A stretch of 64,000 nt of DNA from Patescibacteria group bacterium (GCA_049322955.1 JBMOPU010000012.1:886186-950185), one strand, 5' to 3'; positions 4,329 to 44,553 are shown, counted from the first letter of the stretch. Numbers and translations: made by a program. Notes: generated from the sequence alone by a model not told the origin.

Positions 4329-4344
4329 AGACTATAAAAGTAGG

Positions 4345-6360: not shown

Positions 6361-6371
6361 AATTATTTAAG

Positions 6372-7424: not shown

Positions 7425-7433
7425 ACACTCCGC

Positions 7434-10823: not shown

Positions 10824-10827
10824 ATGG

Positions 10828-12441: not shown

Positions 12442-12464
12442 AGTATGTATCAGATTTACTGAGA

Positions 12465-16481: not shown

Positions 16482-17314
16482 GATTTTCGCAGTATTGCAG
16501 TAAGAATACCTAGCAATCCGGCTGTGTATTCGACTGTCCTCATAATAATAAAGGCGAGTGTATCAACGGGACGGTGGAGAAACAATCTCCAGTTACGGAT
16601 ATATGCCATACGTATGGGAAAGTAACTTTTGGTTGCCGCTTTTGGTCGCTTCGCAAGGTATAACAACGAATCTCTGCCGTACATATATCGTTTTCGAAAC
16701 AGTTTTCTTAGCGTAAGCGCCCCTTCATTATGACGAAGAATTTCAGTACTCCAGTAAGTGGCGAATCCCCCTTCTTGCAACGCTACCGCCAGATCCCAAT
16801 CATCGCCACCGCCACCCAGTGATGTATCAAGCCCCCCTAATCGTTTCCATACGCTGGCCTTCACAAAACGAGGCGCTTCGATAGTTTCGTCACCCCAGTA
16901 GCATTGCCGCTCTAAATTTTTTGCCCGTGCCCAAATACCTTCACCGAATGAATCCTCCGATACGATCACCGCGTCTGCCCCTTTTTTACACAGATCAACG
17001 CAATTTTTTATTACTTTTGGGGTCAACTCCATATCTGCATCAATGATATATATGAATTCACCCTTAGCTTTTTTCGCTCCGTAATTCCGTCGGTAAGGAG
17101 CATCAAAATATCCCCGGGGCACCTTTGGGTTATAGGTATATACATGTGCGCCATACTGCTTGGCTATTACCCTTGTGTCGTCGGTGGAGTTACCGTCAAC
17201 GAGTATGATTTCAATATCTTTGTGTGTCTGTGCCCTCACGCTTCGAAGGCAATTTTCTAAAAAAACGGCGGAATTTTTTGTGGGTATGATGACGGATACT
17301 TGCCCTTTTTTCAT
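16478..17314 (-). CDS. glycosyltransferase family 2
   Basis: VSVIIPTKNS ... IEIILVDGNSTDDT ... IIDADME. Confidence 0.8.
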   Translation of the reverse strand: MKKGQVSVIIPTKNSAVFLENCLRSVRAQTHKDIEIILVDGNSTDDTRVIAKQYGAHVYTYNPKVPRGYFDAPYRRNYGAKKAKGEFIYIIDADMELTPKVIKNCVDLCKKGADAVIVSEDSFGEGIWARAKNLERQCYWGDETIEAPRFVKASVWKRLGGLDTSLGGGGDDWDLAVALQEGGFATYWSTEILRHNEGALTLRKLFRKRYMYGRDSLLYLAKRPKAATKSYFPIRMAYIRNWRLFLHRPVDTLAFIIMRTVEYTAGLLGILTAILRKS

Positions 17315-18414
17315 AATATTTCGATAAACCGGTTATACGACACTTTCCATGTGTGCTCATCACTTCCGCCGATTGCGTTTCTTTCCATCCTTTTGCGCAA
17401 CGAGGCATTTCGTATGACCAGCATCATCGCGTCTGCAAGCTCACGGATGTCTGGAGTTGTCGAAAGCAATATTCCGCTACGAAAATCAGCAATAGAATCA
17501 CACAGACCGGTCACACGCGTACCTATACTCGGCGTTCCGCAGGCGGCGGCTTCCGTCACCACCATCCCCCATCCTTCCTTTACCGACGGAAGCAAAAGCG
17601 CCCACGCCTCCTGCATGAGCTTTACCTTCTGATCCTTGGGGTGCTTATCAAAAAACAGATGATCTTTGTTAACCAGAAAAACATTTTTTTGCAGTCCGTA
17701 CTCGTTAATCATTTCTTGGAGCCGTTGTTCCATCGGTCCGTAACCGACGATAGCAAGCTTCGCATCAGGGACTGATTTGACCACGATTCGCATGGCCTCG
17801 ACACACATGTCCGGCCGTTTCATGGCGGTAAGCCGCGCCACAAAAACAAAGAGCGGAGTCTTTGACTTCTTCCCCGGTTTATAGCGATCATGGTCAATCC
17901 CTATGGGAAACGTGCTGATATGGGGAAGCGGGATGCCGAACGAAGCAATATCCTTTTTGACGCTTTCCGAATAGCACACAAACCGCGTCGTTTTATAAGT
18001 GAAGTATTCGAGCGGTTCTAAAAGGTACGCGATATGCGAAATCACGGGCGGCAGTTCATAAAAAAACACTTCCTTGGCCAGTTGATTTACGTAGGCTATT
18101 CGTTTCTCCCTTGGCACATATAAGGGTGTTTGCCAGCAAATGGTGTTGACGCAATCGATCACTTTATCGGGTTTTTCGGCAAGCGAGCGATAATACCGAA
18201 ACGCTTCCCAATAGACCGTAAATCGGTTGCCGCGACGGATAATGCGGATGCCGTCAATCGTCTCTTCCTTTTTTCCGCCGTTGTAGGTTCGGGAAAACCA
18301 CGTCACGGTATGACCGTCACGCACCAACCGTTTGGAGAGTTCATAAAGGATAACTTCCGCTCCTCCGACATCGGGATTTTTTATATCTTTCCAGTTGAGG
18401 ATCAGGATATCCAT
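17311..18414 (-). CDS. glycosyltransferase family 4
   Basis: EX7E-type motif: LLPSVKEGWGMVVTEAAACGTPSIG. Confidence 0.8.
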   Translation of the reverse strand: MDILILNWKDIKNPDVGGAEVILYELSKRLVRDGHTVTWFSRTYNGGKKEETIDGIRIIRRGNRFTVYWEAFRYYRSLAEKPDKVIDCVNTICWQTPLYVPREKRIAYVNQLAKEVFFYELPPVISHIAYLLEPLEYFTYKTTRFVCYSESVKKDIASFGIPLPHISTFPIGIDHDRYKPGKKSKTPLFVFVARLTAMKRPDMCVEAMRIVVKSVPDAKLAIVGYGPMEQRLQEMINEYGLQKNVFLVNKDHLFFDKHPKDQKVKLMQEAWALLLPSVKEGWGMVVTEAAACGTPSIGTRVTGLCDSIADFRSGILLSTTPDIRELADAMMLVIRNASLRKRMERNAIGGSDEHTWKVSYNRFIEIL

Positions 18415-18426
18415 AGATAGGCATGA

Positions 18427-19209
18427 TTATACCGCTTTTTGCGCGCAGGCGATCAGCGTCGTGCCAAAGGGCAACGCGATCCGTGTAGTGAGATAAGTAT
18501 CTAGTCGCATGGAAAACAACAGCAATCGGTTAAGCGGAGCGGCGGGCATGCGAAGCACCCCCTCAAGCACCGCCATCGTGTCATCGGTATGCGCGGGTGA
18601 GATCAGCAGTTTTTTCACAAGAAAGTGCGGCAGATACTGAAAAAAACCGAGATATCCGACAAATCGTACCGTGTATCCGCTTTTTTCCAGCGCTTCGATA
18701 AGGGCGGCTTTGGTGTACCGTCGCTTATGCCCCGATATCGTGTCATATGCACTCCATAACTCCGACCGTGCGGGAACCGTCACAAACAACATCCCTCCGG
18801 GATTGAGCAAAGACCGACATCTCTCGAGCGCTTTTGTTGCATGGGCAATATGTTCAATAACGTCAAAGATACCGACTGCATCAAATTTTTTTGCGGGTTT
18901 AAAATCAAAGAGATCGCCGACAACAAACGTTGCGGAAGGCACGCGTTTTCTTGCATATCTGATGCCATCACCGTGCATATCCAGGCCGGTCACCCGAAAC
19001 CCCATCGCGGCAAGTTCACGAAGGACATATCCCGTACCGCATCCGACTTCAAGAAACCGTTTTCCCAGGGGTTTGGGAAAATATTTCGTGATAATTGACC
19101 GGATCGCATGGTTTCTGCCGCGAAACCAAAAATGCCGTTCTTCGCGGTCGACAAGAAGCGCATAGGCTTCTTTCGGGTAATCACTTGCGGGAGATTTTTT
19201 TGCCGTCAT
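18427..19209 (-). CDS. class I SAM-dependent methyltransferase
   Basis: FLEVGCGTGYVLRELAAMGFRVTGLD and FDVIEH. Confidence 0.8.
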   Translation of the reverse strand: MTAKKSPASDYPKEAYALLVDREERHFWFRGRNHAIRSIITKYFPKPLGKRFLEVGCGTGYVLRELAAMGFRVTGLDMHGDGIRYARKRVPSATFVVGDLFDFKPAKKFDAVGIFDVIEHIAHATKALERCRSLLNPGGMLFVTVPARSELWSAYDTISGHKRRYTKAALIEALEKSGYTVRFVGYLGFFQYLPHFLVKKLLISPAHTDDTMAVLEGVLRMPAAPLNRLLLFSMRLDTYLTTRIALPFGTTLIACAQKAV

Positions 19210-19221: not shown

Positions 19222-20247
19222 TCAGGTGAAGAGCGAGGCATTCTCCCGCACCCATTCATACAGTTTTGTTATGCCCTCAGTAACACCCGTTGTCGGTTCC
19301 CAACCGAATTCTTTTTTCGCTTTTCTTACGTCAGCAACAAATATTTTCTGATCACCGGGACGCCAGTCCTGCGGGCTGACGCGGATGGTTTTTTTAAATA
19401 ATTTTTCCAGCAGCGGACCGAATTCATGCCACACCGATAACGTATTTTTGGGACCGCCTCCGATATTATAGAGGCCGCCTTTTGTTTTTTTGCCTGCGGC
19501 AATCGCCATATCGTATGCGTGTATCAGATCATCAACGTACAGAAGGTCGCGCACCTGTTTCCCGTCGCCGTAAATGGTAAGTTTTTTCCCGATGGTGGTG
19601 GCGATGATAAACCACGCGACCCATCCCTGATCCTCTACGCCGAACTGTCGCGGTCCGTAAATACACGATTGACGGAACACCACGGTGTCCAATCCGTATA
19701 TCCTGCCGTAATCATGCACGTATTGATCGGCGGTTCCCTTCGAACAGCCGTACGGCGAATGAAAATCCAAGGGAGCGGATTCACTCACTCCGTGTGAAAG
19801 CTTTTCATACGCATACCGGCCGTTTTTTTCAACGACCGAAACATCTTCCATTCCCCCGTATACTTTATTGGTTGACGAATAAATAAGCTTGGCCCGGCTG
19901 GAACTTGCCCGCATCGCTTCAAGCAGGTTAAAGGTACCCAACGCGTTGATTTCAAAATCTTCCCGCGGGTCGAGTACCGATGTGGTCACGGCAACCTGCG
20001 CGGCCAGGTGCAACACGGCGTCGGCGTTTTTCAAAAAACCGACGAGCTTGGCCACGTCGGCGGGTTTCCGGAGATCTCCTTTGATAAAGGTGAGTTTGCC
20101 GCCCAAACGCTTAAGCCAGGCAAGATTTTTGTCGGTGTTTTTCCGCGAGAGATTATCAAAGACCACGACATCGGCTTTTTTGCCGAGGTAAAACGCTGCG
20201 GCATTACTGCCGATAAACCCCGCACCCCCGGTAATGACGATACGCAT
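19222..20247 (-). CDS. CDP-paratose 2-epimerase-like NAD-dependent epimerase (RfbE/Prt-like)
   Basis: MRIVITGGAGFIGSN, VVFDNLSRK, HLAAQVAVTTS, EDFEINALGTFNLLEA, IYSSTNKVYG, DFHSPYGCSKGTADQY (YxxxK), VVFRQSCIYGPRQFG, DQGWVAWF, GDGKQVRD. These blocks match Salmonella CDP-tyvelose epimerase as I recall it. Confidence 0.7.
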   Translation of the reverse strand: MRIVITGGAGFIGSNAAAFYLGKKADVVVFDNLSRKNTDKNLAWLKRLGGKLTFIKGDLRKPADVAKLVGFLKNADAVLHLAAQVAVTTSVLDPREDFEINALGTFNLLEAMRASSSRAKLIYSSTNKVYGGMEDVSVVEKNGRYAYEKLSHGVSESAPLDFHSPYGCSKGTADQYVHDYGRIYGLDTVVFRQSCIYGPRQFGVEDQGWVAWFIIATTIGKKLTIYGDGKQVRDLLYVDDLIHAYDMAIAAGKKTKGGLYNIGGGPKNTLSVWHEFGPLLEKLFKKTIRVSPQDWRPGDQKIFVADVRKAKKEFGWEPTTGVTEGITKLYEWVRENASLFT

Positions 20248-20259: not shown

Positions 20260-21051
20260 TTACGGGACAGATACTTTAAAATTCAGTTCCTCATCAAAGC
20301 GCCATTTGCGCTTGTTTAAGTTATCATAATACCGCAGAAAGCGTAACCGATAAAATACCGCGATCGTATCCCAGAGCATATTGAGGATTGTTTTCCACAC
20401 CCCGGTGGAAGTGATGCTGGAGGCTCCCGTAAAATCAAGCTCGACGGGCGCTTCGTAGATACGGGTGTACCCCAGGTATTTGGCGACGGCGAGTATTTCG
20501 ATATCGAACGCGAATTGTTTCACTACCAATCGCGGCAGTACATCCTCGAGCACCGTTCGCCGGTACAGCTTCATCCCTACCTGGGTATCCCGCACATTCA
20601 ATCCGAAAAGAAGCCGCACCAACTGCTGATATCCCCAGGAGAGAATTTTCCTCTCCAACGGATACATCACTTTGGAAACGGGATGCCGTTTGCTCCCGAC
20701 AATGATATCCGCGTTATACCATTTGAAATGCTCGAGCATCATGGAAAGCCCGAGCTCGCTTAAATCTCCTCCCGCATCGAGAAACCCGATCACGTCACCG
20801 TGCGACTTCCCCATACCGAAACGGACGGCATACCCTTTGCCATGGTTCGTTTTGTACCCGGTCACCGTAACTTTTGTCGAACGGACTTTTTTTGCCTCCT
20901 CAAAGCTTTTGTCATCCATCCCGTCTATTACCACGATTACTTCCGTCGGCACATGGAGCAACTCAAGCTCCGCCAGGATATTCTGCAACTGTTTGCGTAT
21001 GGTTTTTTCCTGATGATAGACGGGAATAATAAGACTTAACAGTTTCATAGG
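20260..21051 (-). CDS. glycosyltransferase family 2 (possible polyprenyl-phosphate sugar synthase)
   Basis: LSLIIPVYHQ ... VVIDGMDD ... GKGYA ... FLDAGGD. Start moved to MKLLSLII to abut the downstream gene. Confidence 0.7.
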   Translation of the reverse strand, partial: PMKLLSLIIPVYHQEKTIRKQLQNILAELELLHVPTEVIVVIDGMDDKSFEEAKKVRSTKVTVTGYKTNHGKGYAVRFGMGKSHGDVIGFLDAGGDLSELGLSMMLEHFKWYNADIIVGSKRHPVSKVMYPLERKILSWGYQQLVRLLFGLNVRDTQVGMKLYRRTVLEDVLPRLVVKQFAFDIEILAVAKYLGYTRIYEAPVELDFTGASSITSTGVWKTILNMLWDTIAVFYRLRFLRYYDNLNKRKWRFDEELNFKVSVP

Positions 21052-21052
21052 C

Positions 21053-22303
21053 TTATCGCTTCCGGCGATAGTATAGCAAAAGACCGATAAATAACCCGAC
21101 GGCAACCGTGATATTTGCGGTAATGATCGAAAAGATACTATCGTGGAATGCCACGATAGCGGCAATCTGGACAACCGACGCTCCCGCGACAAACACCCAT
21201 ACACCCGTCTTTCCATGCCCCAAGAGCGTCATAATCAACACGTAACACAGCGAGTAAAACGATAAAAATATTCCCATCCAACCCACATGCGGAGCCGCGG
21301 GATAATACGATGCGCCAAACAGTAGCCCCAAGGCGATATGAGGGAACAGAAAATATCCGGTGGTAATCCCAAAAGAAACGGTGCATACCGCGAGCAACGC
21401 CGCCATCACCAGATTTCGCGAGCCTGTATTTTGCTTGGTTCGCTCCGCCACAACCGGAAAAAGCACATATGAAACGCTGCTTGAGGCAAAGTAGACTATT
21501 TTCCCCATGACCGAAAGCGCCGCATAATAGCCCGCTTCAACGGGCGGAAGAAAATGTTTGGCAAGCAGGATATCCGTACTATAGAGCGACGTGATGCCGA
21601 GCATGGTGATAAGCGACGGTGCCGAATAGGAAACGAATTCTTTTTTGGAAATCCCGCTCGGTTTGGCGTTTGCCGAGTAGACAAAACGAAGCGGGAGAAA
21701 GTATGCACCGAAACCGACAAGTCCCGTCAAAAATCCCGCGATAACCGTTTCCACAACACCCATCGCCGCCCCTATAATGCCACCCAGTAACCTCAATACG
21801 GTCGTAACGTTGTTCATCACCATCGCGGCGGTAAAAAGCTGGAACCCCTGCAACAAGCTGGTCTGGACGACGGTCACGATCCATAACGCGGAGGTAAGAT
21901 ACATGAACAGGATGGAGACAGGATGTGAAATGTGCAAAAAATCAGCAAGTATCCCCATAAGCGGCAGGACTGCCGCGGTTCCCCCTATCGCGACGATCGT
22001 TAGCCATTTCATCGTTTCGAGGCCGAGATTTTTTGCCTTCCCTACCTCCTGTTTTGCACGAAATCCCGCGATATACTTGGTGAGCACCGTTTGGAGCACC
22101 AGTGACGGAACGTTCAACAGATAGGAAAACGAAAACAGCGAGGCAAGTTCTCCGTAGGAAACGGGTCCCAGCATTCTTCCCACCACCAGGTGATAGGCGT
22201 ACGCGCCGAGATTGGCGAGCGTCGAACCGATAAGGACGACAGCGCTTCCTCTTGCCAGGGGATGGGCGGCAATTCGCCGAAAGAAAGAAATAACCGTTTT
22301 CAT
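21053..22303 (-). CDS. Wzx-like polysaccharide flippase (MOP superfamily)
   Basis: About 12-14 TM helices in the Polysacc_synt arrangement. Start at MKTVISFF gives an ATGA overlap with the upstream gene. Confidence 0.7.
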   Translation of the reverse strand: MKTVISFFRRIAAHPLARGSAVVLIGSTLANLGAYAYHLVVGRMLGPVSYGELASLFSFSYLLNVPSLVLQTVLTKYIAGFRAKQEVGKAKNLGLETMKWLTIVAIGGTAAVLPLMGILADFLHISHPVSILFMYLTSALWIVTVVQTSLLQGFQLFTAAMVMNNVTTVLRLLGGIIGAAMGVVETVIAGFLTGLVGFGAYFLPLRFVYSANAKPSGISKKEFVSYSAPSLITMLGITSLYSTDILLAKHFLPPVEAGYYAALSVMGKIVYFASSSVSYVLFPVVAERTKQNTGSRNLVMAALLAVCTVSFGITTGYFLFPHIALGLLFGASYYPAAPHVGWMGIFLSFYSLCYVLIMTLLGHGKTGVWVFVAGASVVQIAAIVAFHDSIFSIITANITVAVGLFIGLLLYYRRKR

Positions 22304-22986
22304 GGGCGCCAGAAGCGGTAGCGAACGAGCGTAAGCAGGGCAATTACCCCGTCCCACCAGGTCAGCTTTTTCCCTTCTTCAAATTTTCTCCCGAAATAGG
22401 AAATCGGTACTTCATAAATCTGATGGCCGCTCCGCAAAAGTTTTGCAGTCACCTCCGGCTCAAAATCAAACCGCTTGGCGTTTATCGTAATGTTGGAGAG
22501 CGCGTCTTTCCGAAATGCCTTATAACCGGTTTCCATATCGGTGATATTGGTGTTGTAGAAAATGTTGGTGAGTAACGTGACAAACTTGTTGCCGAGTTCA
22601 TAGACAAACATGGTGGAAAGATGCGCGCCCAAAAATCGAGATCCGTAGACTACTTTGACGCGTTCGTTTTCAAACGGGGCAAGCAGTGTGGGATAGTCCG
22701 CCGGACTGTACTCGAGATCGGCATCTTGAATAAGGATGATGTCTCCGGTCGCTTCCCGTATTCCCCGGGAAACGGCGGATCCTTTTCCCCCGTTTTTCGG
22801 CATGACGATAAGCCGGATTTTTTTCTGCCAATGCTTGAGCAGTTGCGGTGTTCCGTCGACGGATCCGTCGTCCACGACGATGACTTCTTTTGTCCATCCC
22901 GGCACCGTTTGGGCAAACACGCGGGTAAGCACCGACTCAATCGTCGCCGCTTCGTTATAGGTGGGAATAATCACGGAAAGTTTTTT
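22300..22986 (-). CDS. polyprenyl-phosphate glycosyltransferase (GT2; Dpm1/ArnC/GtrB-like)
   Basis: LSVIIPTYNE, EVIVVDDGSVDGT, PKNGGKGSAVSRGIREATGDIILIQDADLEYSP, ETGYKAF. Confidence 0.8.
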   Translation of the reverse strand, partial: KKLSVIIPTYNEAATIESVLTRVFAQTVPGWTKEVIVVDDGSVDGTPQLLKHWQKKIRLIVMPKNGGKGSAVSRGIREATGDIILIQDADLEYSPADYPTLLAPFENERVKVVYGSRFLGAHLSTMFVYELGNKFVTLLTNIFYNTNITDMETGYKAFRKDALSNITINAKRFDFEPEVTAKLLRSGHQIYEVPISYFGRKFEEGKKLTWWDGVIALLTLVRYRFWRP

Positions 22987-22993
22987 CATACGA

Positions 22994-24052
22994 TCAGGAA
23001 AGCGACGCATAGACCGACGCCGTTTCTTTTGCCACCCGTTTCCAGGTGAATTGTTTTGCCCATTCCATTTCGTTTTTTACCAGCTGTTTGCGTTCCTTGG
23101 GCGGAAGCATAACCGACTGTCGTATGGCACGCGCCAACTCCCCGGTATTGCCCGGATCGGCACTGAGCGCGGGACCCGATATTTCGGGGATACTCCCCCG
23201 GTCACTTGCCACCACCGGCACCCCGCACATCATCGCCTCTATCACCGGGAATCCGAACCCTTCATACCATGAAGGAAGCACTACGGATCGTGCACCGGAA
23301 TAGAGCGCGGACATATCCTCATCCCGGATAAATCCGGGGCGAATCACATGTTTCCCTATCCCGAGCGACGTAATAAGCTGCAGGATATCACGGGTTTCCC
23401 GCAGTTCCGTATTGGAAAACGCGCTGCCTGCCAACACTAATGTTGTGTTTCTGCTTCGGGAAAGTTTTGCCCTGGTCAGCTTCCACGCGGCAAGAAGTCC
23501 CGTAACGTTTTTGTTCCAGTTCACGTCCCCGACATACAGCACGTATTCCTCCGGCAGATGATATCGCTGTCGCATGGCACGAATCCTCTGCTCGTCGGTG
23601 ACCCGCTTATAGGACGGCGAGGGGGCAAGGGGCACTACATGGATTTTTTCTTCCTGTTTGCCCGTCAATTTCGCGATATCTTTTTTGCTTGATCGGGAAT
23701 CGGTCACAATCGCCGCGGCTCCCATAAGCGATAATCGCTGTATTTGCCATTTTACCCTGCCGCGAATCCCGGGCGGAAATTTATCCGGAAATAGCAGCGG
23801 AATCATGTCGTGGACGGTTACCACCGTGGGATAGTGCTTAAAAAACGGCAGGGTCAGAAAAAAAGGGTCAAAAAACGGATAATGCACGACATCCGTCTTT
23901 TTGAGGATATCCTCAACCCGGGTAAAAAAGGAATACGTGTGCCCTTTTTCGTATTTTAGCAGCGCGTCAATGAGGTTTTTGGTATAGACACCCGTCCCCC
24001 GCATCCGGTGTTCGGTCGAGAGCGGCAACGTATTTATCGCGATATTCATAAT
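22994..24052 (-). CDS. glycosyltransferase family 4
   Basis: VLPSWYEGFGFPVIEAMMCGVPVVAS. Start trimmed to MNIAINTL. Confidence 0.8.
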   Translation of the reverse strand: MMNIAINTLPLSTEHRMRGTGVYTKNLIDALLKYEKGHTYSFFTRVEDILKKTDVVHYPFFDPFFLTLPFFKHYPTVVTVHDMIPLLFPDKFPPGIRGRVKWQIQRLSLMGAAAIVTDSRSSKKDIAKLTGKQEEKIHVVPLAPSPSYKRVTDEQRIRAMRQRYHLPEEYVLYVGDVNWNKNVTGLLAAWKLTRAKLSRSRNTTLVLAGSAFSNTELRETRDILQLITSLGIGKHVIRPGFIRDEDMSALYSGARSVVLPSWYEGFGFPVIEAMMCGVPVVASDRGSIPEISGPALSADPGNTGELARAIRQSVMLPPKERKQLVKNEMEWAKQFTWKRVAKETASVYASLS

Positions 24053-25587
24053 TGCCTCTTGAGTATAAACGATACGAATGCGACAGACAACGAAAGAACG
24101 CCGATAAAAACGGACAGCCGCTGCCACCATGTCTCATGCAGTGCTATCTCGCCTTCCCGTACGCCGGAAGGAATCGTAAATGACGCAAGACCGCGTCCGT
24201 CGGGTTCACTGGGTATTGTTTTTTCTCCCGTGATAAATACCCATCCCGGATAGTGCGCGACGGGAGCGGTAAGCGTCCCGCTTGCGGTGGCGGTAAGGGA
24301 TATCGCATAACGGGTCGGTGCCGTTTTTTCCGCGGAGACGGTTCCCGATGACAGAGAAAACGGCGTGGTCGCAAGCGACTTGGGATCGCCGGTTATCCAT
24401 CGGGTCTGAAACGCATTCCCGAGCGACGAGGTGCCGCGGGACAATTGTTCATGCGCAAAATACTGTGCATCCGTCCGCGGCTGATAGATAACCGGATGAA
24501 AATACCGCCAGGTAAATGCAAATGCGCACACCACGATCAGAACGCTGACGACGTTTTTTCGCGCAACCGCGGCAGCGAGTATCGGGGTCGCTATGACGAT
24601 AACCGCAAGGAGCCGCCACGGATACTGGATGAGCGAAAGCGGCGGGATCATTTGCCATACAAACACAGAGACCGGCAACATGAAAAAAACGGCGGCAACA
24701 CCGAGCAGCCGATAGAAGAGGAGTTCTTTGCGAAGGTGATTTTCTTTCCGGGAAACAAAGAGACCTGCGATAAAAATCACCATCGGCATAATCCCGATCT
24801 GGTAGGACATTTCGGTAGCGCCTCCCGTTTGTCCGCGGTAGCCGCTTCCCCAGGATGGGAGCAACAACTGGTCTAACCGGGGAAAATAATCAAACACATT
24901 CACGTTACTGAGCCCGCTAATGAACTGCCGTTCATAGAGCGCGGGTATCCAAAACACACTCGACATACCCACACCCAGGAGTATGGCAAAAAGCCCTTGC
25001 CGGCAAAACAAAAAAGCGTACAGAAAAAGTACCGGCACAAATAGCATCGCCATAATGTTATGACTGACGATAAGAAGCGCCACACCGGCGGACGCCATAC
25101 CGTATCGTTTTTTCGTAAGCGCAAAGAGTGATGCAAATATGAAGGCGATCGCCCATATCTCGCCAAGGGAACCGCGGATATACATATCAAGAAACCAGTA
25201 CGGTACAAAAGCCCCTGCCAGCGCCCCGATCGCGGCACGGAATGTACCGAATTTTTCCTTGAGCCAGAGGTATGAAAAGAGCACGGCGACAATATAACCC
25301 GTTGCGGTAACTAATTTGACGCTATCGACAAATGAAAATCCGAATACATGAAACAATGCGCCTACCAGGTTGGGAAACGGATATTGAAACGTAAACAGCG
25401 GGATCCCCAACCCATAATTTAAATCCGGAGCCCATCGGGGAAATAACGTGCCGCCGGAAAGCATCGTAAAATACTGCCAGAACCGTATAATGTGATATTC
25501 ACCGTCATGGGTCGGAATAAATCCATTCCCGAACAACGGTGACGCGGCAAAAAGTACCGGAATAAGGACAAGGATAAACGGTATCAT
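24046..25587 (-). CDS. YfhO-related polytopic membrane glycosyltransferase-like protein (HD...RW paralog family, member 1 of 5)
   Basis: N-terminal PTHDGEYHIIR...FPRWAPDLNYGLGIPLFTFQYP, mid FVPYWFLDMYIRGSLGE, C-terminal YPGWVFITGE...IPSGV then a TM anchor. Start trimmed to MIPFILVL, which overlaps the upstream stop as ATGA. Confidence 0.6.
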   Translation of the reverse strand: MIPFILVLIPVLFAASPLFGNGFIPTHDGEYHIIRFWQYFTMLSGGTLFPRWAPDLNYGLGIPLFTFQYPFPNLVGALFHVFGFSFVDSVKLVTATGYIVAVLFSYLWLKEKFGTFRAAIGALAGAFVPYWFLDMYIRGSLGEIWAIAFIFASLFALTKKRYGMASAGVALLIVSHNIMAMLFVPVLFLYAFLFCRQGLFAILLGVGMSSVFWIPALYERQFISGLSNVNVFDYFPRLDQLLLPSWGSGYRGQTGGATEMSYQIGIMPMVIFIAGLFVSRKENHLRKELLFYRLLGVAAVFFMLPVSVFVWQMIPPLSLIQYPWRLLAVIVIATPILAAAVARKNVVSVLIVVCAFAFTWRYFHPVIYQPRTDAQYFAHEQLSRGTSSLGNAFQTRWITGDPKSLATTPFSLSSGTVSAEKTAPTRYAISLTATASGTLTAPVAHYPGWVFITGEKTIPSEPDGRGLASFTIPSGVREGEIALHETWWQRLSVFIGVLSLSVAFVSFILKRQL

Positions 25588-26723
25588 AGACGCTTTTTCG
25601 GAAAAATCCGCGATCCAAAAATCATCGATATTCCGTAGATGATAAGCGGAATTGCGGTAAGTACTACCCGTGCTATCGGCGTTATCCCCCCGTATTCCCT
25701 TGTCGCTATCCACGGAATGTACCGTGCCATAAGGCCCAACGAAAGCCAAAACACAACGCCGTGCATCAACCCGTTTGTTGTTCTCGGGATACACGCCGCG
25801 ATACTGATGAACCACACGGCATACCAGGGATACATTTCTTCACGCAAGGGACTAACGAGAAATACGCCGACCATAAGCCAAAACGCGTACCGGTATTTTT
25901 TATCGATTGAAAGCTTGGGGAGGAAAAATAACGGTAACAAGGCAACCGTTGCTCCTTTGATAAGTATCGAGGCGATAAACAAAAGCACGGCTACGATTTT
26001 TACGGGCACACCTTTTCTGTCCCATAAGACAAGCGAGCCGATGGCAAGCGCCATCATGGTGCCGTCGTTGTGACCGTTTATCAGCAGTTCCGTAACGATG
26101 AGCGGATTTGCCGCAAAAAACAGCACCTGATCCGTCCGCCCGGTTTTTCGGTAAATTAACCAACAAATAATCCCATACGAAACGCCCGCCAAGAGTTTGA
26201 ACGAAAAAATACTCAAAAATATGTGACCGTTTCCCGCCATGTGCGGAATCGCGGTAATTAAAATCCAAACCGGACCGTACAAGGCGAGTTTATTGGCTGC
26301 ACGCGTGAACGAAAGCATGGGTTCATTGGGTATTTCAATCGGCATCACCACATAGGGATTTTCCCTATACTGATAGGTTACTTTGGCAGTCGCGATGTAG
26401 TTGAATATGTCATAGGAAAGCGCCGGGAACGCAAACAGGGCAAGCAGGACGATACCGATAAGCATCCGGGGAATTTTTCGGATGCTCACCGTTGCCCGAT
26501 ATCGCAAAACATCGGCATAGGCGACGTACCAAATAACCAGAAAGACCCCGAAAAGCAGGGCGGTAAGCGGTGATTGCCGATACACCAAATACCGCATCAT
26601 ATCCTCCCATTGCCGGGTATAGGGAGCAAACGGGAGCGACAAATGCGGATCAATAAATCCGTAGGAGATAACGCAAAAAAGAAGTGCCGCAAGAATCGTC
26701 AACGCATATACCAATCGTTTCAT
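25584..26723 (-). CDS. polytopic membrane protein, uncharacterised (all-TM)
   Basis: 379 aa, about 10 TM helices, no recognised soluble domain. Confidence 0.5.
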   Translation of the reverse strand: MKRLVYALTILAALLFCVISYGFIDPHLSLPFAPYTRQWEDMMRYLVYRQSPLTALLFGVFLVIWYVAYADVLRYRATVSIRKIPRMLIGIVLLALFAFPALSYDIFNYIATAKVTYQYRENPYVVMPIEIPNEPMLSFTRAANKLALYGPVWILITAIPHMAGNGHIFLSIFSFKLLAGVSYGIICWLIYRKTGRTDQVLFFAANPLIVTELLINGHNDGTMMALAIGSLVLWDRKGVPVKIVAVLLFIASILIKGATVALLPLFFLPKLSIDKKYRYAFWLMVGVFLVSPLREEMYPWYAVWFISIAACIPRTTNGLMHGVVFWLSLGLMARYIPWIATREYGGITPIARVVLTAIPLIIYGISMIFGSRIFPKKRL

Positions 26724-26726: not shown

Positions 26727-27260
26727 TTATAAAAGCGCTTGTTTTGCTTCTTCCCGGATGCGGAGCGATTCCGTTAACAAAGAAGAAAGCGGCAACTTGG
26801 TCGCATCGGTTTTTTCGGGAGTCCAGGTAAATGTTTCGGGAACATGCGCGCGTATGTCGGATAACACCCGCGTATGCTCCCCTATCGCACCCAGGTATCG
26901 CGCGACAAACAACCGTACGTCTTTCCCTTCCGCCGAGGCTTTTTGAAGAAGCGGCGTTGCTTTTTGGAATTCCCTATCGGAACGTTCCAACGCGTCCACG
27001 GCGAGGAGATACTGTTTGTATTCAAATAAGGTTTTTGCCTCGACAAGATATTTATCCGCAAGCGACAGATGGTATTTGTACCGGGTAATCGAGCCGAAAT
27101 ACAGCGGTTTTTTGAGCTCGTCGATAATGCGCATGATCCGATAGAGTTTGTTTCCCGGCATAGCGGAAGGATACGGCAATACGTACTCGGCACGAACCTG
27201 CGGGGATACGCTTAAAAAGATCACAATGCCGACCAAACAGCCGAACAGTCGAACGTTCAT
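26727..27260 (-). CDS. small secreted alpha-helical protein with signal peptide (resembles the DUF5667 type as I recall it; uncertain)
   Basis: MNVRLFGCLVGIVIFLSVSPQVRA|EY signal peptide, then a charged helical region. It is the only predicted soluble secreted protein in the window. Confidence 0.45.
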   Translation of the reverse strand: MNVRLFGCLVGIVIFLSVSPQVRAEYVLPYPSAMPGNKLYRIMRIIDELKKPLYFGSITRYKYHLSLADKYLVEAKTLFEYKQYLLAVDALERSDREFQKATPLLQKASAEGKDVRLFVARYLGAIGEHTRVLSDIRAHVPETFTWTPEKTDATKLPLSSLLTESLRIREEAKQALL

Positions 27261-28024
27261 GATGCGAGAGATAATAAATACGCCTTAGGAAAATGGAGCG
27301 CTGAAAATAAGGCAAACAAAAACCCCCGCCATCCGTCGACAAATCCCTTATGACGGATAAACAGCAGGAAAAACGTACCAAGCGGTTTTCCCACAAGATA
27401 TGTTACCGCGGCGGCAATGCTTCGATTGCCTTTTTTTTCGGCAAGTTCGCGGGCGGTAAGGGCAATATACGCGGCGGATTTCTTCCAGTACTGCTTTGCC
27501 GAAACATAGGAATAGTGGTCAAGAGGATTGGAGAGTTTGCCTACCGAACCGGCTATCGTTATCTGCTCATGGACGCTTTTTTGGGGGAAACTTCCCTTCT
27601 CCCGCCTGAAGAGTCGGACGACATAATCCGGGTATTGCCCACCTTTGCGGAGCCAATCGCCCAAAAAATAATTTTTTCTCGGGATTGCGTATCCGTCAAG
27701 TGAATTGGCATTTGAGCATACCGCCCGGATTTCGGAGGCCAATTCATTACTCACCACCTCATCGGCATCGAGCTGGAGAATCCACACGCCGTGGGCATGA
27801 TCCAGTGCTTTTTGTTTATTGATGTGGAACATCGGCGGGTTGGTAGTTTCAATTACCGTAGCCCCGTGCTTTTTGGCAATGATCGCCGTGGTATCGGTAG
27901 ATGCGCCGTCCACCACCACGATTTCGTCGGCAAGCGTCCGCACCGACGCAAGACAGCGTTCGATATTTGCGGCTTCGTTATGGGTAGCCAGCGCTACGGT
28001 TATGAGGACATTCTTTTTCGCCAT
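27257..28024 (-). CDS. glycosyltransferase family 2
   Basis: ITVALATHNEAANIERCL ... EIVVVDGASTDTT ... LQLDADE. Confidence 0.8.
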   Translation of the reverse strand: MAKKNVLITVALATHNEAANIERCLASVRTLADEIVVVDGASTDTTAIIAKKHGATVIETTNPPMFHINKQKALDHAHGVWILQLDADEVVSNELASEIRAVCSNANSLDGYAIPRKNYFLGDWLRKGGQYPDYVVRLFRREKGSFPQKSVHEQITIAGSVGKLSNPLDHYSYVSAKQYWKKSAAYIALTARELAEKKGNRSIAAAVTYLVGKPLGTFFLLFIRHKGFVDGWRGFLFALFSALHFPKAYLLSLAS

Positions 28025-29715
28025 ATGAGTGCTATTGTACCAAGTGCCGCAAGAATAACGAGCGATGCCGCACTGATACCGTTGGCTACGGAGCGTAATT
28101 TTGTGTCCGAAAATACGAACCGGATATCATAGCTACCAGGATCCAAATCAAAGGTCATGAGTCCGCGATACGACGGATCCTGAAACTGCAAGGCATCGGC
28201 TTCAAGCGGGGCACCGTTTATCGTCACCCGCCATCCCGGAAAATAGAGCGTGTTCTCGACAAACCGCACGGGACCGGTCGTCTCCACATGATAGGAACGT
28301 ACGGTGCTGGTCCGTATTCCCTGGGTGATTCTGCCCTCACTGGGGATAAGGTACGCGGCGCTTTCGGGGCGGCGTTCCATAAAACGCACCGACCAAATAG
28401 GACTGCTTTCGCCGGTATCGGTGGTGCTGTTATAAATCCCCGTAAAAAACGACTCCGGATATTGTTTGTACTCCTTGGCTCGCCACATGGGAACGGTCGT
28501 AATAATCCCGACGATACAAAGGAATACGGCAATTTGTCTCCGCCGTTTGGGTGACGAAAGCACTACCGCAAGCGCTCCGATGACGGCAAGCAGAAACGTT
28601 GTGACCGACAAAAGCCTCCAGGGAAATTGGAATTTCTGAAGTATGGTAACCGTATTCCACAGCGGACTTGATAGTTGCGTCATGGCAAACAGCGTAAAGA
28701 ACAACAGCAGGATGCAGGCGATGAGAAGTTTTTGGTATTTCGAATTTTTCTCCAGTAAAAAGAATCCCACGATGAGCGCAAGCCACGGACCGGCTCCCAA
28801 CCATTTGGACAATTCATTTCCTCCGCCGTAGCTCCAGGGAGAATAAATAAACGCCGTCCACGGCACAAACCGTCCGGCAAATTCACCGGCAGTCACGATG
28901 TCACGAAGCGTATATTTTCCCTCAAAAAAACCCGGCACCCAATAAAATGCGGACAGCAAAAATCCCCATCCCACGGCAATCGCCGCGATCACCAAAAAAC
29001 GCGCACGAAGTTTTGTCTCGTGAACGGTCAAATAAATCGCATACCATGCAAGGATCGGCAAAAACATGATACTTAACGCGTTATGGGCAAGGATAAGACA
29101 TGCCACTCCCACCGCGATGACGGTACCGGGAGCAATCCCCCACCCCTTCCGTATATTTGAAAGCAAAAGCAAGCCGTATGCGATAATCGGCGGAAAGATA
29201 AATGCCATGTGTTCGCCGATTGCTCCCCGAACATACAGATCGATAAACCGATACGGTGCAAATCCGTATAGCACTGCGGCCGTCACCCCGGCCGCCACTC
29301 CCCATGAAGCACTTGCCCACAGATACATTGCCAAAATGCTGGCAATGAAACCGCTGGCAAAAACCAGCTTCGTGCTGTCAACGAATGAAAATCCCAAAAA
29401 GTGAAAGAGCGAGCCGACATACGAAGGAAGCGGATACAAAAACATAAGGATCGGATGTCCGTATCCCCAGTTCAGATTCGCCGCCCATCTCGGCACGATG
29501 TTCCCTTCCGAAAGAGACCGGTAAAAGTTTGCAATTCGCGCGATATGATCCTGCCCGTCATGCGTCACGGGAAAACCCGGATTGAGCAAATCAGAAAGCG
29601 GCAATAGCGCGACACAGAACAGACCGATCCATACTAATACGGAACGTATGTTTCGTTTCACTTTGTTTCCTCCATTATTCGTTTCTCGATAATAAACCCG
29701 CTCGGTAATTTCCAC
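28000..29715 (-). CDS. YfhO-related polytopic membrane protein (HD...RW family, member 2)
   Basis: FPVTHDGQDHIARI...VPRWAANLNWGYGHPILMFLYPLPSY, FAPYRFIDLYVRGAIGE, C-terminal YFPGWRVTINGAPL...LDPGSYDIRF then a TM anchor. Confidence 0.6.
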   Translation of the reverse strand: MEITERVYYRETNNGGNKVKRNIRSVLVWIGLFCVALLPLSDLLNPGFPVTHDGQDHIARIANFYRSLSEGNIVPRWAANLNWGYGHPILMFLYPLPSYVGSLFHFLGFSFVDSTKLVFASGFIASILAMYLWASASWGVAAGVTAAVLYGFAPYRFIDLYVRGAIGEHMAFIFPPIIAYGLLLLSNIRKGWGIAPGTVIAVGVACLILAHNALSIMFLPILAWYAIYLTVHETKLRARFLVIAAIAVGWGFLLSAFYWVPGFFEGKYTLRDIVTAGEFAGRFVPWTAFIYSPWSYGGGNELSKWLGAGPWLALIVGFFLLEKNSKYQKLLIACILLLFFTLFAMTQLSSPLWNTVTILQKFQFPWRLLSVTTFLLAVIGALAVVLSSPKRRRQIAVFLCIVGIITTVPMWRAKEYKQYPESFFTGIYNSTTDTGESSPIWSVRFMERRPESAAYLIPSEGRITQGIRTSTVRSYHVETTGPVRFVENTLYFPGWRVTINGAPLEADALQFQDPSYRGLMTFDLDPGSYDIRFVFSDTKLRSVANGISAASLVILAALGTIALIWRKRMSS

Positions 29716-31183
29716 GAAGCCGTAACGTTTCCTTTTTTAATCACGGTTTCCAACCATCCATTATAACTCCACGGTTTTTCGGGATCAGGTTCAATCAGCA
29801 GATATACGGTGTTTTCAAGCGATGTTCCCGGTACATACCCGTATCGCTTTGAAGCGTGCCAACCGAGAAGATAGTCATACGCGTAGGTATATACGGGGGG
29901 CGTAAAAACAGCAAGATTAAAACGCTCACCCCGTGCGTCAGTGTAAATGAAATCGATCGCATCAATTTTTCCGCGTATTTTCGCCGTCCCGCCATAGTCG
30001 CGATAATCATAAGTAATTATTTTCGGAAATCGGTAAAACACATTGACAAGAAGTACGCCGAGGAGTCCCAGTGCCACCCATCTGCCTACTTTTCCATGCA
30101 TGGCTTTCATACCCGTGTATGCACCGAGGATGGGATAAACAAAATACAGCAGAGAAAAATAATGGGAATATACCGGTCCCCGATACGGATAATAAATGAT
30201 AAGATGTGCAAAAATGAGAAGCAGTATCCCCGTCATATACTGTTGCTGTTCTTTCTTTTTTTCGTGATACACGTACCAGATAGCGGCCGAAAAAAGTATA
30301 AACGGAAACAGATAGGTCATTCCGGGTATACCCAATGAGAACGACTCTCGTACCGTTGCAAGCAGTGCATTGCCGTCTCCTATCACCCGGCAATCGGCTG
30401 AAACGGTTTTGCCTGTGCACCCTGGGTAACCCGCGTGCCGTACGACAGCACCCCGCGAACAATATTCCATCCGTGTCGGGCCTCAAAGAGTATCATGGGC
30501 AGAAACCCCATGAGAGCACCGGCCGCAATGACTATCCAACGACGAATATCCCGTACACGAAGCACGACTGCAAAATAGACACCAACCGCGACGAGTGCGG
30601 GTACCGCCATCGGAATTTCAAAATGATAGAGACTTGCCGCCAAAAATGCCGTGAGAAAAACGGAAACTAAGGTTTTTTTTCGCGACATCCATAGCGCATA
30701 CAAAAATGGCATAACGAGAACTCCCGAGTAATTCGGAGCCCATATCATTCTCGCTTGCGCGGTCAGGGGAAGCGATACGGCTGACAACAGCAATACAAGC
30801 CGCGCAGTAGCATTTCCGAATATCCTGTTTGATAATCTGGTCAACGCAAAAATCACTGCCAAACTCACCGCGCATAAAAACACGATCGACCAGTAAGGGT
30901 TGCCGGCACCAATGAATAACAAACCCGCGAGTATATATCGATATCCCGGTCCGTGGAAAATACCCGGCAGTCCCGCAAAACCCGCACCCGCTTCAGCACC
31001 GATAAGCGTAAATTTATGCGCAAACGCAATCGAGCTTGCCGCCATGGTATCGAGCCCCTGATCAAAACCGAATACGTAGTTGCCGTTTAGTGTCTCCACC
31101 GTACGAAGCACAATTCCCAACGCAATCGCCACCAAACCGGCCGCGGTTAAAACGTACGTACCCAACGCAGATATCCGTTTCAT
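29658..31183 (-). pseudogene. ArnT/PMT_2-like GT-C paralog interrupted by a single-nucleotide frameshift (~30386..30420)
   Basis: ORFs 30383..31183 and 29658..30470 are in different frames. Frame A ends ...GVLSYGTRVTQGAQ and frame B continues ...ALLATVRESFSLGIPGM. This matches the paralog 37382..38893 (...GVLGEGTRVVMSKRAMVWQALDYSFRVWGKMLPWM) collinearly only if the frames are joined. Confidence 0.5.
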
Positions 31184-36094: not shown

Positions 36095-37346
36095 CGAGAA
36101 CCTTGAGCCCGCCTAATGCATACACCATAGACAGGTAACCCAAGTGGCTGTTGTTGAAATACCGGCTCATATACCAATAAACGGTCAGAAACACCGCGTA
36201 ATAAACAATCATCCGCGACTCGTCCGGTCTCCCCATAAACCATCGCATAAGGATGACAAACGTCGGCACGGCAAAAACAATCTGCCAATATATAAACGGA
36301 TAGTAGGCATGGATATCGGTAATGATCCCCGCATCATACAGCACCATCCCCAATCCGTACCCTGAGACCGGGTAACTGGTGGCAGTTCCTCCGGAAAGAT
36401 ATAAAATAACACTCTCGATAAATGCTTTCGCATCCCACAGAACAAACGGTGCGGTAAGCACGAGTCCCGTCACGGCACAGGCGGCCGCCGAAATCCAAAA
36501 AACACGCCGGTGCGCCGCCGTTTTCAGCCATAGCGCGACAAGATAAAACGGCGCCATAAACCAAATTGTTTGCTTGCTTAACATCGCCAATGCAAATACG
36601 ACAGCACTCAGCGTGTACCGCTTATACGATAAAAACAGCAGTGCACCGACAAGCCATGAAAGAGCAAATACATCGCTCCGTCCTTCGACAAAGTAATCCA
36701 CGACGGACGGTGACAAAGCGGTGATAATCATGGCAATGCGGGCAACACCCTTGTCGCGAAACCAAAACCATAAAAAGAAGAGAAGCATCCCCATGGTAAA
36801 AAGCGATGCCATACGGCCGTCAAAAAATCCGAAGACGGGAATTCCCGTGTAATAAAAAACAAACGGAAACAACAAATACCAGGGAGGCATGACAAAGTGA
36901 TACAGTGCGGGGTTTACCGCATCGCGACCGAGCTCGGCGTAATGAAAACTTTCCACCGGAGTTCCGAAATACGTTTCCTTATAGGGGTTTTTCCCGACGA
37001 TGAGATAACGCATGGCCGCTTCCTGTTGGAGAATGATATCGTGCACCTGATACACGGGTGCGGTTTTTGCCCTATCAAACATGGCCGTGACCGTCGCCCC
37101 GCCGAGCGTTATGACAAACGTCGCGATCATCAAAAATACTTTGACAATGTTAAGGTGTTTCTTATATTTGCCTAAGAGTTCCGGAAAAAATGAGATCACA
37201 CAATGAAGGGTAAGCAATAAAAAAAGCATGCCGAAAAGCCAATACGGCGTTCCTTCCACGGGAAGTATCCGATACTTCATAACAATAGGAATGGAGAGCG
37301 CAAAAAGGAGAAGCGAATCGACGATGCTAAGCCACATACCTGTCAT
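36066..37346 (-). CDS. polytopic membrane protein, uncharacterised (all-TM)
   Basis: 426 aa, about 10-12 TM helices, no soluble domain. Confidence 0.5.
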   Translation of the reverse strand: MTGMWLSIVDSLLLFALSIPIVMKYRILPVEGTPYWLFGMLFLLLTLHCVISFFPELLGKYKKHLNIVKVFLMIATFVITLGGATVTAMFDRAKTAPVYQVHDIILQQEAAMRYLIVGKNPYKETYFGTPVESFHYAELGRDAVNPALYHFVMPPWYLLFPFVFYYTGIPVFGFFDGRMASLFTMGMLLFFLWFWFRDKGVARIAMIITALSPSVVDYFVEGRSDVFALSWLVGALLFLSYKRYTLSAVVFALAMLSKQTIWFMAPFYLVALWLKTAAHRRVFWISAAACAVTGLVLTAPFVLWDAKAFIESVILYLSGGTATSYPVSGYGLGMVLYDAGIITDIHAYYPFIYWQIVFAVPTFVILMRWFMGRPDESRMIVYYAVFLTVYWYMSRYFNNSHLGYLSMVYALGGLKVLDEKITHETA

Positions 37347-44552: not shown

Positions 44553-44553
44553 T

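Follow-up and report, generated by a model that had tools for sequence, protein, structure and literature searches.

Little is firmly established about how polyprenyl-monophosphate-linked sugars cross membranes. Genetics and gene context are the main basis for the assignment of GtrA, ArnE/F, GacK, and AglR, and AglR is a Wzx-like protein. The published model of the GacI/J/K/L system of Streptococcus pyogenes has a cytoplasmic GT-A glycosyltransferase, a Wzx-type flippase, and a GT-C glycosyltransferase, and a review from the Gründling laboratory draws exactly such a variant (PMC8035078). The same review notes that a comparable mechanism has been suggested for EPA of enterococci (PMC8035078). 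In the Haloferax pathway, AglR has been put forward as the flippase for dolichyl-phosphate (DolP) mannose, or as its helper, in the step between AglD and AglS (PMC3871713). A MATE-family flippase is genetically implicated in the three-component system for the pentofuranose of Citrobacter O-antigen (PMC11127046), and the eukaryotic Dol-P-Man flippase is unidentified (PMC12992685). The subject here is a stretch of 64,000 nucleotides (the window) from a Patescibacteria group bacterium, an uncultured, ultra-small organism of Gottesmanbacteria-like type (GCA_049322955.1 JBMOPU010000012.1:886186-950185). Its core is a triad of genes that encode two family 2 glycosyltransferases, GT2a and GT2b, and a putative flippase of the multidrug/oligosaccharidyl-lipid/polysaccharide (MOP) superfamily.

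The triad is probably a conserved module that supplies lipid-phosphate sugars to GT-C enzymes in Microgenomates-type bacteria of the candidate phyla radiation (CPR). This reading is preferred because GT2s resembling dolichyl-phosphate mannose synthase (DPMS) pair specifically with MOP genes, the pairing is conserved, the GT-C families of the locus imply a demand for phosphate-linked donors, and the hallmarks of a Wzx/Wzy pathway were not found in the window, its flanks, and four other loci. An earlier description of the window, made from the sequence alone (the original prediction), is partly confirmed in its observations and partly supported in its interpretation.

Layout of the core triad

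The core triad occupies 20260..22989 and is composed of three minus-strand genes that run in the same direction, in the order GT2a, flippase, GT2b, as read from the sequence.

GT2a, 22300..22989, minus strand: 229-aa GT-A glycosyltransferase of the DPM1/ArnC/AglJ type, without a transmembrane (TM) helix
Flippase, 21053..22303, minus strand: 416 aa, predicted divergent 12-TM Wzx-like MOP protein of the polysaccharide transporter (PST) type
GT2b, 20260..21048, minus strand: 262-aa GT2 resembling polyprenyl-phosphate glycosyltransferases, without a TM helix
ATGA stop/start overlap of GT2a and flippase, 22300..22303, minus strand: direct sequence reading (...CGC CCA TGA AAA...)

Gene order, gene content, one start/stop overlap, conserved adjacency, and relationships of sequence and fold are direct observations. 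The gene order agrees with the original prediction. Two of its start positions are each one codon off. The GT2a ATG is at 22989, and the proposed 22986 is the AAA codon after it; an alternative in-frame ATG at 23010 would run into the upstream GT4 gene. The GT2b ATG is at 21048, and the proposed 21051 lies one codon upstream.

The three genes had also been described as chained by ATGA overlaps. This holds for the first junction, where the TGA of GT2a shares bases with the ATG of the flippase (CCATGAAAA), an arrangement that suggests translational coupling of the two genes. It does not hold for the second, where the flippase ends in TAA and a spacer of 4 nt (GCCT) precedes the GT2b ATG. The whole 64-kb window is filled by large open reading frames (ORFs). 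No intergenic gap exceeds 43 nt, except for 652 nt at the left edge that are part of a gene cut at the window boundary. The minus strand carries nearly all genes; a single divergent block, at 38937..46206, is on the plus strand.

Conservation of the flippase and GT2b pair

Conservation was assessed in 80 loci fetched from species-level (GTDB species) genomes, whose ORFs were scored against the window proteins; 78 loci had enough sequence. In about 69 of the 78, the GT2b ortholog and the flippase gene are immediate neighbours, even where flippase identity is as low as 28%. In two of these adjacent loci the pair is convergent, and in three further loci GT2b lies within a few kb of the flippase. 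Gottesman-, Woese-, Shapiro-, and Levybacteria all show the adjacency, as do a few bins with archaeal labels. For GT2a, the closer clade (flippase scores of at least 230 bits) has the ortholog beside the flippase in 36 of 40 loci, and the more distant loci in none of 34. Because GT2b adjacency is broad and GT2a adjacency is limited to the closer clade, the evolutionary core is the flippase with GT2b, and GT2a is a clade-specific addition. The core pair is thus the flippase and the GT2b downstream of it, and the Dpm1-like GT2a is not part of it.

The flippase diverges roughly twice as fast as its partners, with a median bit-score ratio to self of 0.34, versus 0.68 for GT2a and 0.63 for GT2b. 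GT4 genes on either side of the triad are syntenic at 38-60% flippase identity, and an epimerase and a methyltransferase are also syntenic at 60% (loci L001 and L002). In related genomes, the median number of GT-C-like ORFs within +/-8 kb of the flippase gene is 2.5-3. GT2b is also conserved far above its neighbours: none of its 120 best matches has less than 72% identity, whereas identity of the flippase next to it drops to 40-60%.

Flippase-GT2 pairs are also seen on contigs labelled Bathyarchaeia, Nanoarchaeota, Woesearchaeota, or 'archaeon' (L060, L063, L076, L077, and L084). In L063, L076, and L077, the adjacent GT2 resembles GT2c, a further window glycosyltransferase described below, and not GT2b. 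These loci could reflect a cross-domain distribution or mis-binning. Many related records of metagenome-assembled genomes, including CAYUZE010000002.1 (L007), which is 99% identical to the window, are labelled 'uncultured Gammaproteobacteria bacterium'. The labels look like placeholder mislabels; the named relatives of the window are all Patescibacteria/Microgenomates, namely Gottesmanbacteria, Woesebacteria, Shapirobacteria, and Levybacteria.

A second MOP and GT2 pair

A second Wzx/GT2 pair, which the original prediction had noted at the other end of the locus, is borne out.

Wzx2, 57929..59380, minus strand: 483 aa, canonical-looking PST/Wzx MOP flippase
GT2c, 59367..60116, minus strand: 249-aa DPMS-like GT2 without a TM helix, with a 14-nt overlap with the Wzx2 start

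Wzx2 matches PF13440 at E 1e-50 and PF01943 at E 3e-22. Three NCBIfam models (MOP flippase, O-glycosylation flippase, and TuaB) match it as well, each below its cut-off. GT2c aligns with the Pyrococcus furiosus DPMS (PfDPMS) structure 5mlz over its entire catalytic domain (E 2e-16, residues 8-234). Its start is most likely 60116 and not 60149 as proposed, which gives 249 aa, the length of the gene called in a related locus. In 58 of 60 metagenome loci (53-98% identity), GT2c is the gene immediately upstream of Wzx2. Both pairings, flippase with GT2b and Wzx2 with GT2c, are far beyond chance.

The 416-aa MOP protein

The flippase itself has no match in Pfam (E up to 10) or NCBIfam. A hidden Markov model (HMM) of its family finds nothing at E 10 among sequences of the Protein Data Bank (PDB), and fold comparison alone succeeded. 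Homologs come from Patescibacteria/Gottesmanbacteria and are about 419 aa long. Among 27 aligned relatives, 16 match PF13440 (Polysacc_synt_3; best E 1.5e-11) and 15 match PF01943 (Polysacc_synt; best E 2e-13). An AlphaFold (AF2) model built on the relatives' alignment has a pLDDT of 87.4 and a pTM of 0.83. In Foldseek, its top matches are the WzxE entries 9g9p and 9g9n (TM-score 0.75-0.77 over 421-425 columns). MATE and MurJ structures come next, likewise at a TM-score of about 0.75.

WzxE is a 12-TM lipid III flippase (PMC11706664). The original prediction gave the protein 14 TM segments; its hydropathy profile has 12 distinct peaks, and the model superposes end to end on WzxE, so 12 is the better count. 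The assignment to the MOP-type polytopic proteins stands, because of the relatives' Pfam matches and the predicted fold, the sequence itself having no family match. As modelled, the 416-aa protein is a divergent 12-TM Wzx-like MOP protein. Two other identities were considered. MurJ, the lipid II flippase, was rejected on length, TM number, and family matches, and a MATE drug exporter was judged unlikely, given the conserved GT2 pairing.

The flippase, or its family profile, was compared with Wzx2 (as a single sequence or a 13-sequence alignment) using BLASTP and hhalign. The E values of 0.04, 0.23, and 0.24 are not significant, which leaves the two MOP proteins as no more than remote relatives. 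Thousands of proteins make up the subfamily of about 420 aa; most come from CPR bacteria, and some of the loci carry an archaeal label. At E<=1e-30 the subfamily includes 3514 representatives of 50%-identity clusters. Nearly all of its 150 best members are 390-460 aa long. One 945-aa member, P0333, carries a C-terminal DUF7790 and is a real fusion or a gene-calling artefact. As a Rosetta-stone link it was set aside, the extra domain being uninformative.

Relationship of the GT2s to polyprenyl-phosphate glycosyltransferases

GT2a matches PF00535 at E 1e-36. Its closest solved structure is 5mlz (E 9e-21, residues 2-202), followed by ArnC (residues 1-206). The best curated family is AglJ at 117 bits, far below the model cut-off of 325. 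GT2b is a weaker GT2 by sequence (PF00535, E 4e-18; best NCBIfam match PpgS, 40 bits). A 26-sequence profile of GT2b finds 5mlz first among PDB entries (E 5e-12) and then GtrB and ArnC, and the top 22 fold matches of its AlphaFold (AF2) model (pLDDT 76) are all ArnC, GtrB, or DPMS. By these matches, GT2a and GT2b both appear to belong to the polyprenyl-phosphate glycosyltransferase branch of GT2, as had been proposed for GT2b as a second such enzyme. When the ten GT2s of the window are ranked against PfDPMS, GT2a scores 78 bits, GT2c 62, GT2b 36, and the remaining ones at most 30. The top three in this ranking are the GT2s located beside a MOP gene.

Residues were mapped by aligning the three proteins to the DPMS sequence with HMMER, using the reference residues of Gandini et al. 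(PMC5526996).

PfDPMS DADLQH motif: GT2a, DADLEY; GT2b, D91-A-G-G-D95; GT2c, DIDLST
PfDPMS Arg117: GT2a, Arg117; GT2b, Lys120; GT2c, Arg127
PfDPMS Arg131/Ser135: GT2a, Tyr129/Asn133; GT2b, Arg133/Ser137; GT2c, Arg141/Ser145
PfDPMS A-loop Arg202/Lys208: GT2a, Arg200/Lys206; GT2b, Thr207/Thr213, not conserved; GT2c, Asn214/Arg220

A DXD-type motif is present in GT2a and GT2c, and GtrB has DADLQD at this site. In GT2b, DAGGD is invariant across the family alignment, and its second Asp is moved by two positions and aligns with Gln93. In PfDPMS, Arg117, Arg131, and Ser135 position the acceptor phosphate of Dol-P, and GtrB itself has no clear counterparts of Arg131 and Ser135 (PMC5526996). This site is kept by GT2b (K120/R133/S137) and GT2c (R127/R141/S145). 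Though less obvious as a family member, GT2b retains the acceptor-phosphate site better than GT2a. None of the three meets the full signature of a type III DPMS, which includes DADxQHPP, Arg117/SRY, Arg131, Ser135, Lys178/KIL, and a GtrA-like 4-TM domain (PMC12992685); at the Lys178 position they have D, A, or F. GT2a had been called a textbook Dpm1/ArnC-like enzyme. DPMS and ArnC are indeed its closest solved relatives, but the label is too strong for a protein without equivalents of Arg131 and Ser135 and without a TM anchor. The C-terminus of GT2b is a long aromatic/basic helix (residues 215-248), and in place of a TM segment the GT2s have only such aromatic/basic C-terminal helices.

GT-C enzymes of the locus and missing Wzx/Wzy hallmarks

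Characterised ArnT, PMT, YfhO/CsbB, and mycobacterial GT87/MptA enzymes use polyprenyl-phosphate-monosaccharide donors. The window holds about 17-20 GT-C-type genes. There are seven PMT_2 (ArnT/PMT-like) genes, one GT87/PMT_2-like gene, five YfhO-like genes (two of them weak), and two PTPS_related genes. Two polytopic proteins have syntenic orthologs that match MptA_B, PTPS_related, or YfhO, and three large polytopic proteins have no family. The proposal that synthase/flippase pairs supply several GT-C enzymes is supported by this number of genes from families known for polyprenyl-monophosphate donors. Pfam scans covered 50 of the 52 large window ORFs, and the other two (2500..3324 and 3333..4328) match 274- and 331-aa Epimerase genes called in L167. 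Other window genes include five GT4, seven further GT2, several NDP-sugar epimerases/dehydratases, and several methyltransferases.

The flanks examined extend about 10 kb to the left and about 5.5 kb to the right of the window. No initiating phosphoglycosyltransferase (PGT; PF02397, PF00953), STT3/PglB, or ABC exporter was found in the window ORFs, the flanks, or four other loci. Wzy, Wzz, and O-antigen ligase (WaaL/PglL) were likewise missing from all of these, and the window and flanks gave no Pfam match to Wzy_C, O-antigen polymerase, or Wzz. Nor did loci L001-L006 yield a PGT. Three or four polytopic window proteins stay without family assignment in the same scans. The combination that would mark an ordinary pathway, Wzy and Wzz with a canonical flippase, is thus not seen in this region.

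No GtrA-, ArnE/F-, or GacJ-like small membrane gene was found in the window. About 5 kb past its right end, in the same extended locus, L168:1-675 encodes a 370-aa GT2 fused to GtrA_DPMS_TM (PF04138), resembling a type III DPMS. A GtrA-type route appears to be present in this locus as well, by way of this fusion, and the suggestion that MOP proteins simply replace GtrA is not supported.

Proposed mechanism

Synthase, flippase, and GT-C genes are clustered in one locus, as seen in the gene order of the window and in conserved synteny. From this arrangement we infer every enzymatic and transport step below, the identity of sugar and acceptor, and any contact of synthase and flippase. In the first step, the TM-less GT2a and GT2b would act as peripheral proteins at the cytoplasmic face and join a nucleotide sugar to polyprenyl phosphate, giving a lipid-linked sugar; GT2c would do likewise in the second pair. 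In the second step, the adjacent MOP protein (divergent and Wzx-like in the core, canonical PST/Wzx in the second pair) would flip the polyprenyl-phosphate-linked sugar to the outer leaflet. In the third step, the GT-C enzymes of the locus (PMT_2, YfhO, PTPS_related, and GT87/MptA_B-like) would use these donors to glycosylate extracytoplasmic acceptors. Candidate acceptors are surface proteins and cell-wall or lipid-anchored glycans. By analogy, the scheme would plausibly be the Wzx-type-flippase form of multi-component transmembrane glycosylation, as in GacI/J/K/L, greatly expanded and without a recognisable GacJ-like helper; it is favoured with moderate confidence.

Several observations weigh against this mechanism. 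No TM helix is present in GT2a, GT2b, or GT2c, and the window, which leaves no free coding space, has no gene for a small membrane partner like GacJ, DPM3, or Rv3632. The acceptor-phosphate site of GT2a is only partial, with R117 kept but Y129/N133 at the other positions. GT2b is without the second Asp of the DXD motif and the A-loop Arg202/Lys208; given DAGGD and the missing basic residues, its donor chemistry may differ. The five GT4, seven other GT2, epimerases, and methyltransferases imply cytoplasmic assembly of an oligosaccharide, which would need its own lipid primer and flippase. At least one MOP protein may therefore carry an oligosaccharide and not a monosaccharide, and the two MOP genes may divide the two tasks. 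The GT2-GtrA_DPMS_TM fusion could serve some or all of the GT-C enzymes, and a PGT could be encoded elsewhere in the genome, the search having covered the window, its flanks, and four loci.

Docking of the synthase on the flippase as a means of membrane attachment is a conjecture. In its strongest form, which is speculative and considered unlikely, the MOP subfamily of about 420 aa would be a dedicated flippase for polyprenyl-monophosphate sugars and a membrane dock for TM-less synthases, with GT2b as a new DAGGD-motif class of lipid-sugar synthase. If true, the subfamily would be a conserved, biochemically approachable candidate class for flippases of the Dol-P-Man type, whose identity is still open (PMC12992685).

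Alternative explanations

The main rival, itself rather unlikely, is an archaeal-style pathway. DPM1/AglJ-like GT2s would initiate, GT4 and GT2 enzymes would extend polyprenyl-phosphate-hexose in the cytoplasm, and methyltransferases would modify the product. The MOP protein would then flip a polyprenyl-phosphate-oligosaccharide, as proposed for Agl15 in Haloferax, and membrane transferases would deliver it outside. Such a pathway would account for the cytoplasmic enzymes and for the lack of a PGT. Soluble glycosyltransferases, sugar-modifying enzymes, and methyltransferases are numerous in the locus, with no PGT or ABC exporter found, and GT4 genes flank the triad in conserved synteny. Oligosaccharides are the classical cargo of Wzx. 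The best curated match of GT2a is AglJ, which adds the first sugar to dolichyl phosphate (PMC3871713). However, the AglJ score of 117 bits is far under the cut-off, and two or three separate initiators would be needed. No en-bloc transferase of the STT3/AglB/PglB, PglL, or WaaL type was detected in the window, and the GT-C families that are present are known for single-sugar transfer from phosphate-linked donors.

An ordinary Wzx/Wzy pathway is more doubtful. A PGT elsewhere would prime undecaprenyl diphosphate, GT2a and GT2b would extend the chain, the MOP proteins would flip diphosphate-linked repeat units, and a polytopic protein would be the polymerase or ligase. Wzx2 strongly matches canonical PST models, GT2 genes often flank wzx genes, and polytopic proteins without a family are available at 4345..6360, 7434..9668, and 46218..47936. 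The search was confined to the window, flanks, and other loci, so a PGT could lie elsewhere in the genome. However, no PGT, Wzy_C, or Wzz was found in the 64 kb, the flanks, and the four other loci. The GT2s next to MOP genes are specifically DPMS/ArnC/GtrB-like, and two keep the phosphate-binding Arg/Ser. The flippase-GT2b adjacency persists down to 28% flippase identity, unlike the shuffled glycosyltransferase content of O-antigen loci, and the core MOP protein has no significant profile match to the Wzx2 family. If this explanation were true, the locus would be merely a large glycan cluster.

It is very improbable that the 416-aa MOP protein is no glycolipid flippase of this pathway but a MATE-like small-molecule exporter or a lipid II flippase placed here by historical accident: MATE and MurJ structures match its model almost as well as WzxE, one relative has a weak MatE Pfam match, and the protein itself has no family match, but the Pfam matches of its family are to PST models and not to MurJ or MatE, its length is that of 12-TM WzxE and not of 14-TM MurJ, and it tightly adjoins GT2b, often with overlap, in about 69 of 78 genomes, inside glycan loci.

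Other genes of the locus

The surroundings of the triad are composed of further glycan genes.

GT4, 17311..18414, minus strand: downstream of the core, syntenic
Methyltransferase, 18427..19209, minus strand: downstream of the core, syntenic
NDP-sugar epimerase/dehydratase, 19222..20247, minus strand: downstream of the core, syntenic
GT4, 22994..24130, minus strand: upstream of the core
Polytopic protein, 24046..25815, minus strand: syntenic orthologs match PTPS_related or, weakly, YfhO (L001, L005, L006)
MptA_B-like protein, 25584..26723, minus strand: assigned via syntenic orthologs
DUF5667 protein, 26727..27260, minus strand: one N-terminal TM or signal segment
GT2, 27257..28024, minus strand: block upstream of the core
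Weak YfhO-like protein, 28000..29715, minus strand: block upstream of the core

The DUF5667 protein keeps its place between the GT2 and the MptA_B-like gene in L001, L005, and L006 and is a conserved component of the locus. In related loci, one polytopic gene of 519 aa (L001 1061-2620) takes the place of the overlapping ORFs 29658..30470 and 30383..31183. The split at 29658-31183 may reflect a frameshift, a pseudogene, or an error of assembly. The remaining GT-C genes and their neighbours are as follows.

PMT_2-like GT-C paralog, weak, 10828..12441, minus strand: E 9e-05, below the Pfam cut-off, in the low-GC end
Three tandem PMT_2 paralogs, 31188..32816, 32822..34450, and 34460..36094, minus strand: PF13231, E 7e-11, 2e-08, and 8e-13
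GT87/PMT_2-like membrane protein, 36066..37346, minus strand: from the Pfam scan
PMT_2 paralog, 37382..38893, minus strand: from the Pfam scan
PTPS_related, 38937..40574, plus strand: divergent four-gene GT-C block
YfhO, 40462..42921, plus strand: same block
Two PMT_2, 42918..44552 and 44443..46206, plus strand: same block
Two YfhO-family GT-C, 49776..52016 and 53069..55471, minus strand: PF09586, E 2e-20 and 2e-30
GT4 between the two YfhO genes, 52020..53144, minus strand: from the Pfam scan
PTPS_related membrane protein, 60088..61770, minus strand: directly upstream of the GT2c-Wzx2 pair
Weak YfhO-like protein, 61734..63326, minus strand: upstream of the same pair, after PTPS_related

Window positions 1-16000 have a G+C content of 0.35-0.41, versus about 0.50 elsewhere in the window. 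This low-GC end holds large polytopic proteins without a family (4345..6360 and 7434..9668), epimerases, a GT4, and methyltransferases; this part of the locus may vary or have been exchanged horizontally. At 9649-10823 there are two membrane ORFs of 208 and 196 aa with 3-4 TM segments each, which are also separate in L167. Their only match is a weak Alg6/Alg8 (E 0.005). A GT-C gene split in two could account for them, or they could encode small membrane subunits.

To the left of the window (L167:10624-18995) are a 1154-aa protein without a Pfam match, a hexapeptide-repeat acyltransferase, and two GDSL-lipase-like proteins (963 and 347 aa). The acyltransferase and GDSL genes suggest O-acylation of the glycan. 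At the right edge, ORF 63345..63905 is the C-terminal part of a 510-aa gene. More PMT_2, MptA_B, and GT2 genes follow, and the locus continues well past 64 kb.

Comparison with known systems

The locus takes up more than 64 kb of a genome of about 1 Mb, a size taken from related near-complete contigs. For bacteria that are ultra-small and probably depend on a host, this indicates a heavy investment in extracytoplasmic glycosylation of the surface, which may matter for host attachment and phage evasion. A literature search on glycosylation systems of CPR, Gottesmanbacteria, or Patescibacteria found nothing specific. With its clean comparative-genomic argument, the flippase-GT2b pair is a defined, testable candidate for MOP-type flipping of polyprenyl-phosphate sugars.

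The original prediction regarded the wiring as unusual, which does not hold in kind given the precedents of GacI/J/K/L and EPA (PMC8035078), AglR (PMC3871713), and the Citrobacter MATE protein (PMC11127046). GacI/J/K/L likewise has an anchor-less GT-A synthase, a Wzx-family flippase proposed for C55-P-monosaccharide, and a GT-C, all in one glycan locus. Unlike it, the triad locus has no GacJ-like small membrane activator, and two synthase-like GT2s flank the flippase. GT2b has DAGGD and not DXD, there are about 17-20 GT-C genes versus one, the organism is a CPR bacterium, and the flippase is too divergent for Pfam.

In the AglD/AglJ-AglR-AglS system of Haloferax volcanii, a DPM1-like GT2 also charges dolichol monophosphate, and a membrane mannosyltransferase uses the donor outside (PMC3871713). 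The CPR system differs in being bacterial, in having no AglB/STT3 seen, in an AglJ score well below the cut-off, and in synthases without TM segments. The Citrobacter system shares a MOP-superfamily transporter, genetically implicated as the flippase of a polyprenyl-phosphate-monosaccharide that feeds a GT-C (PMC11127046). Its synthase, however, is of the phosphoribosyltransferase type and not a GT2, its flippase is MATE and not PST/Wzx, and it has a single GT-C (GT136).

GtrA/B/C, ArnC/ArnEF/ArnT, and CsbB/GtcA/YfhO follow the same logic of synthase, flippase, and GT-C. The GT2b fold is closest to ArnC/GtrB, and ArnT-like PMT_2 and YfhO-family genes are abundant in the locus. C-terminal TM helices are a feature of GtrB, ArnC, and CsbB but not of GT2a, GT2b, or GT2c. 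The adjacent flippases here are large MOP proteins and not small GtrA- or SMR-type proteins, and a GtrA-type domain occurs only as a GT2 fusion outside the window.

The DPMS enzymes share the GT-A domain and interface helices, and GT2b and GT2c retain their Arg/Arg(Lys)/Ser phosphate site (PMC5526996, PMC12992685). Human DPM1 (type II, which has no TM and needs DPM2/3) is likewise anchor-less, but GT2a, GT2b, and GT2c have no DPM2/3-like partner, and unlike PfDPMS (type III) none carries the full published signature. The triad is not a new principle but a variant of a scheme proposed in streptococci and archaea. Different here are the CPR setting, the Pfam-invisible flippase subfamily, the anchor-less synthase-like GT2s on both sides of it, the invariant DAGGD motif, and the number of GT-C paralogs.

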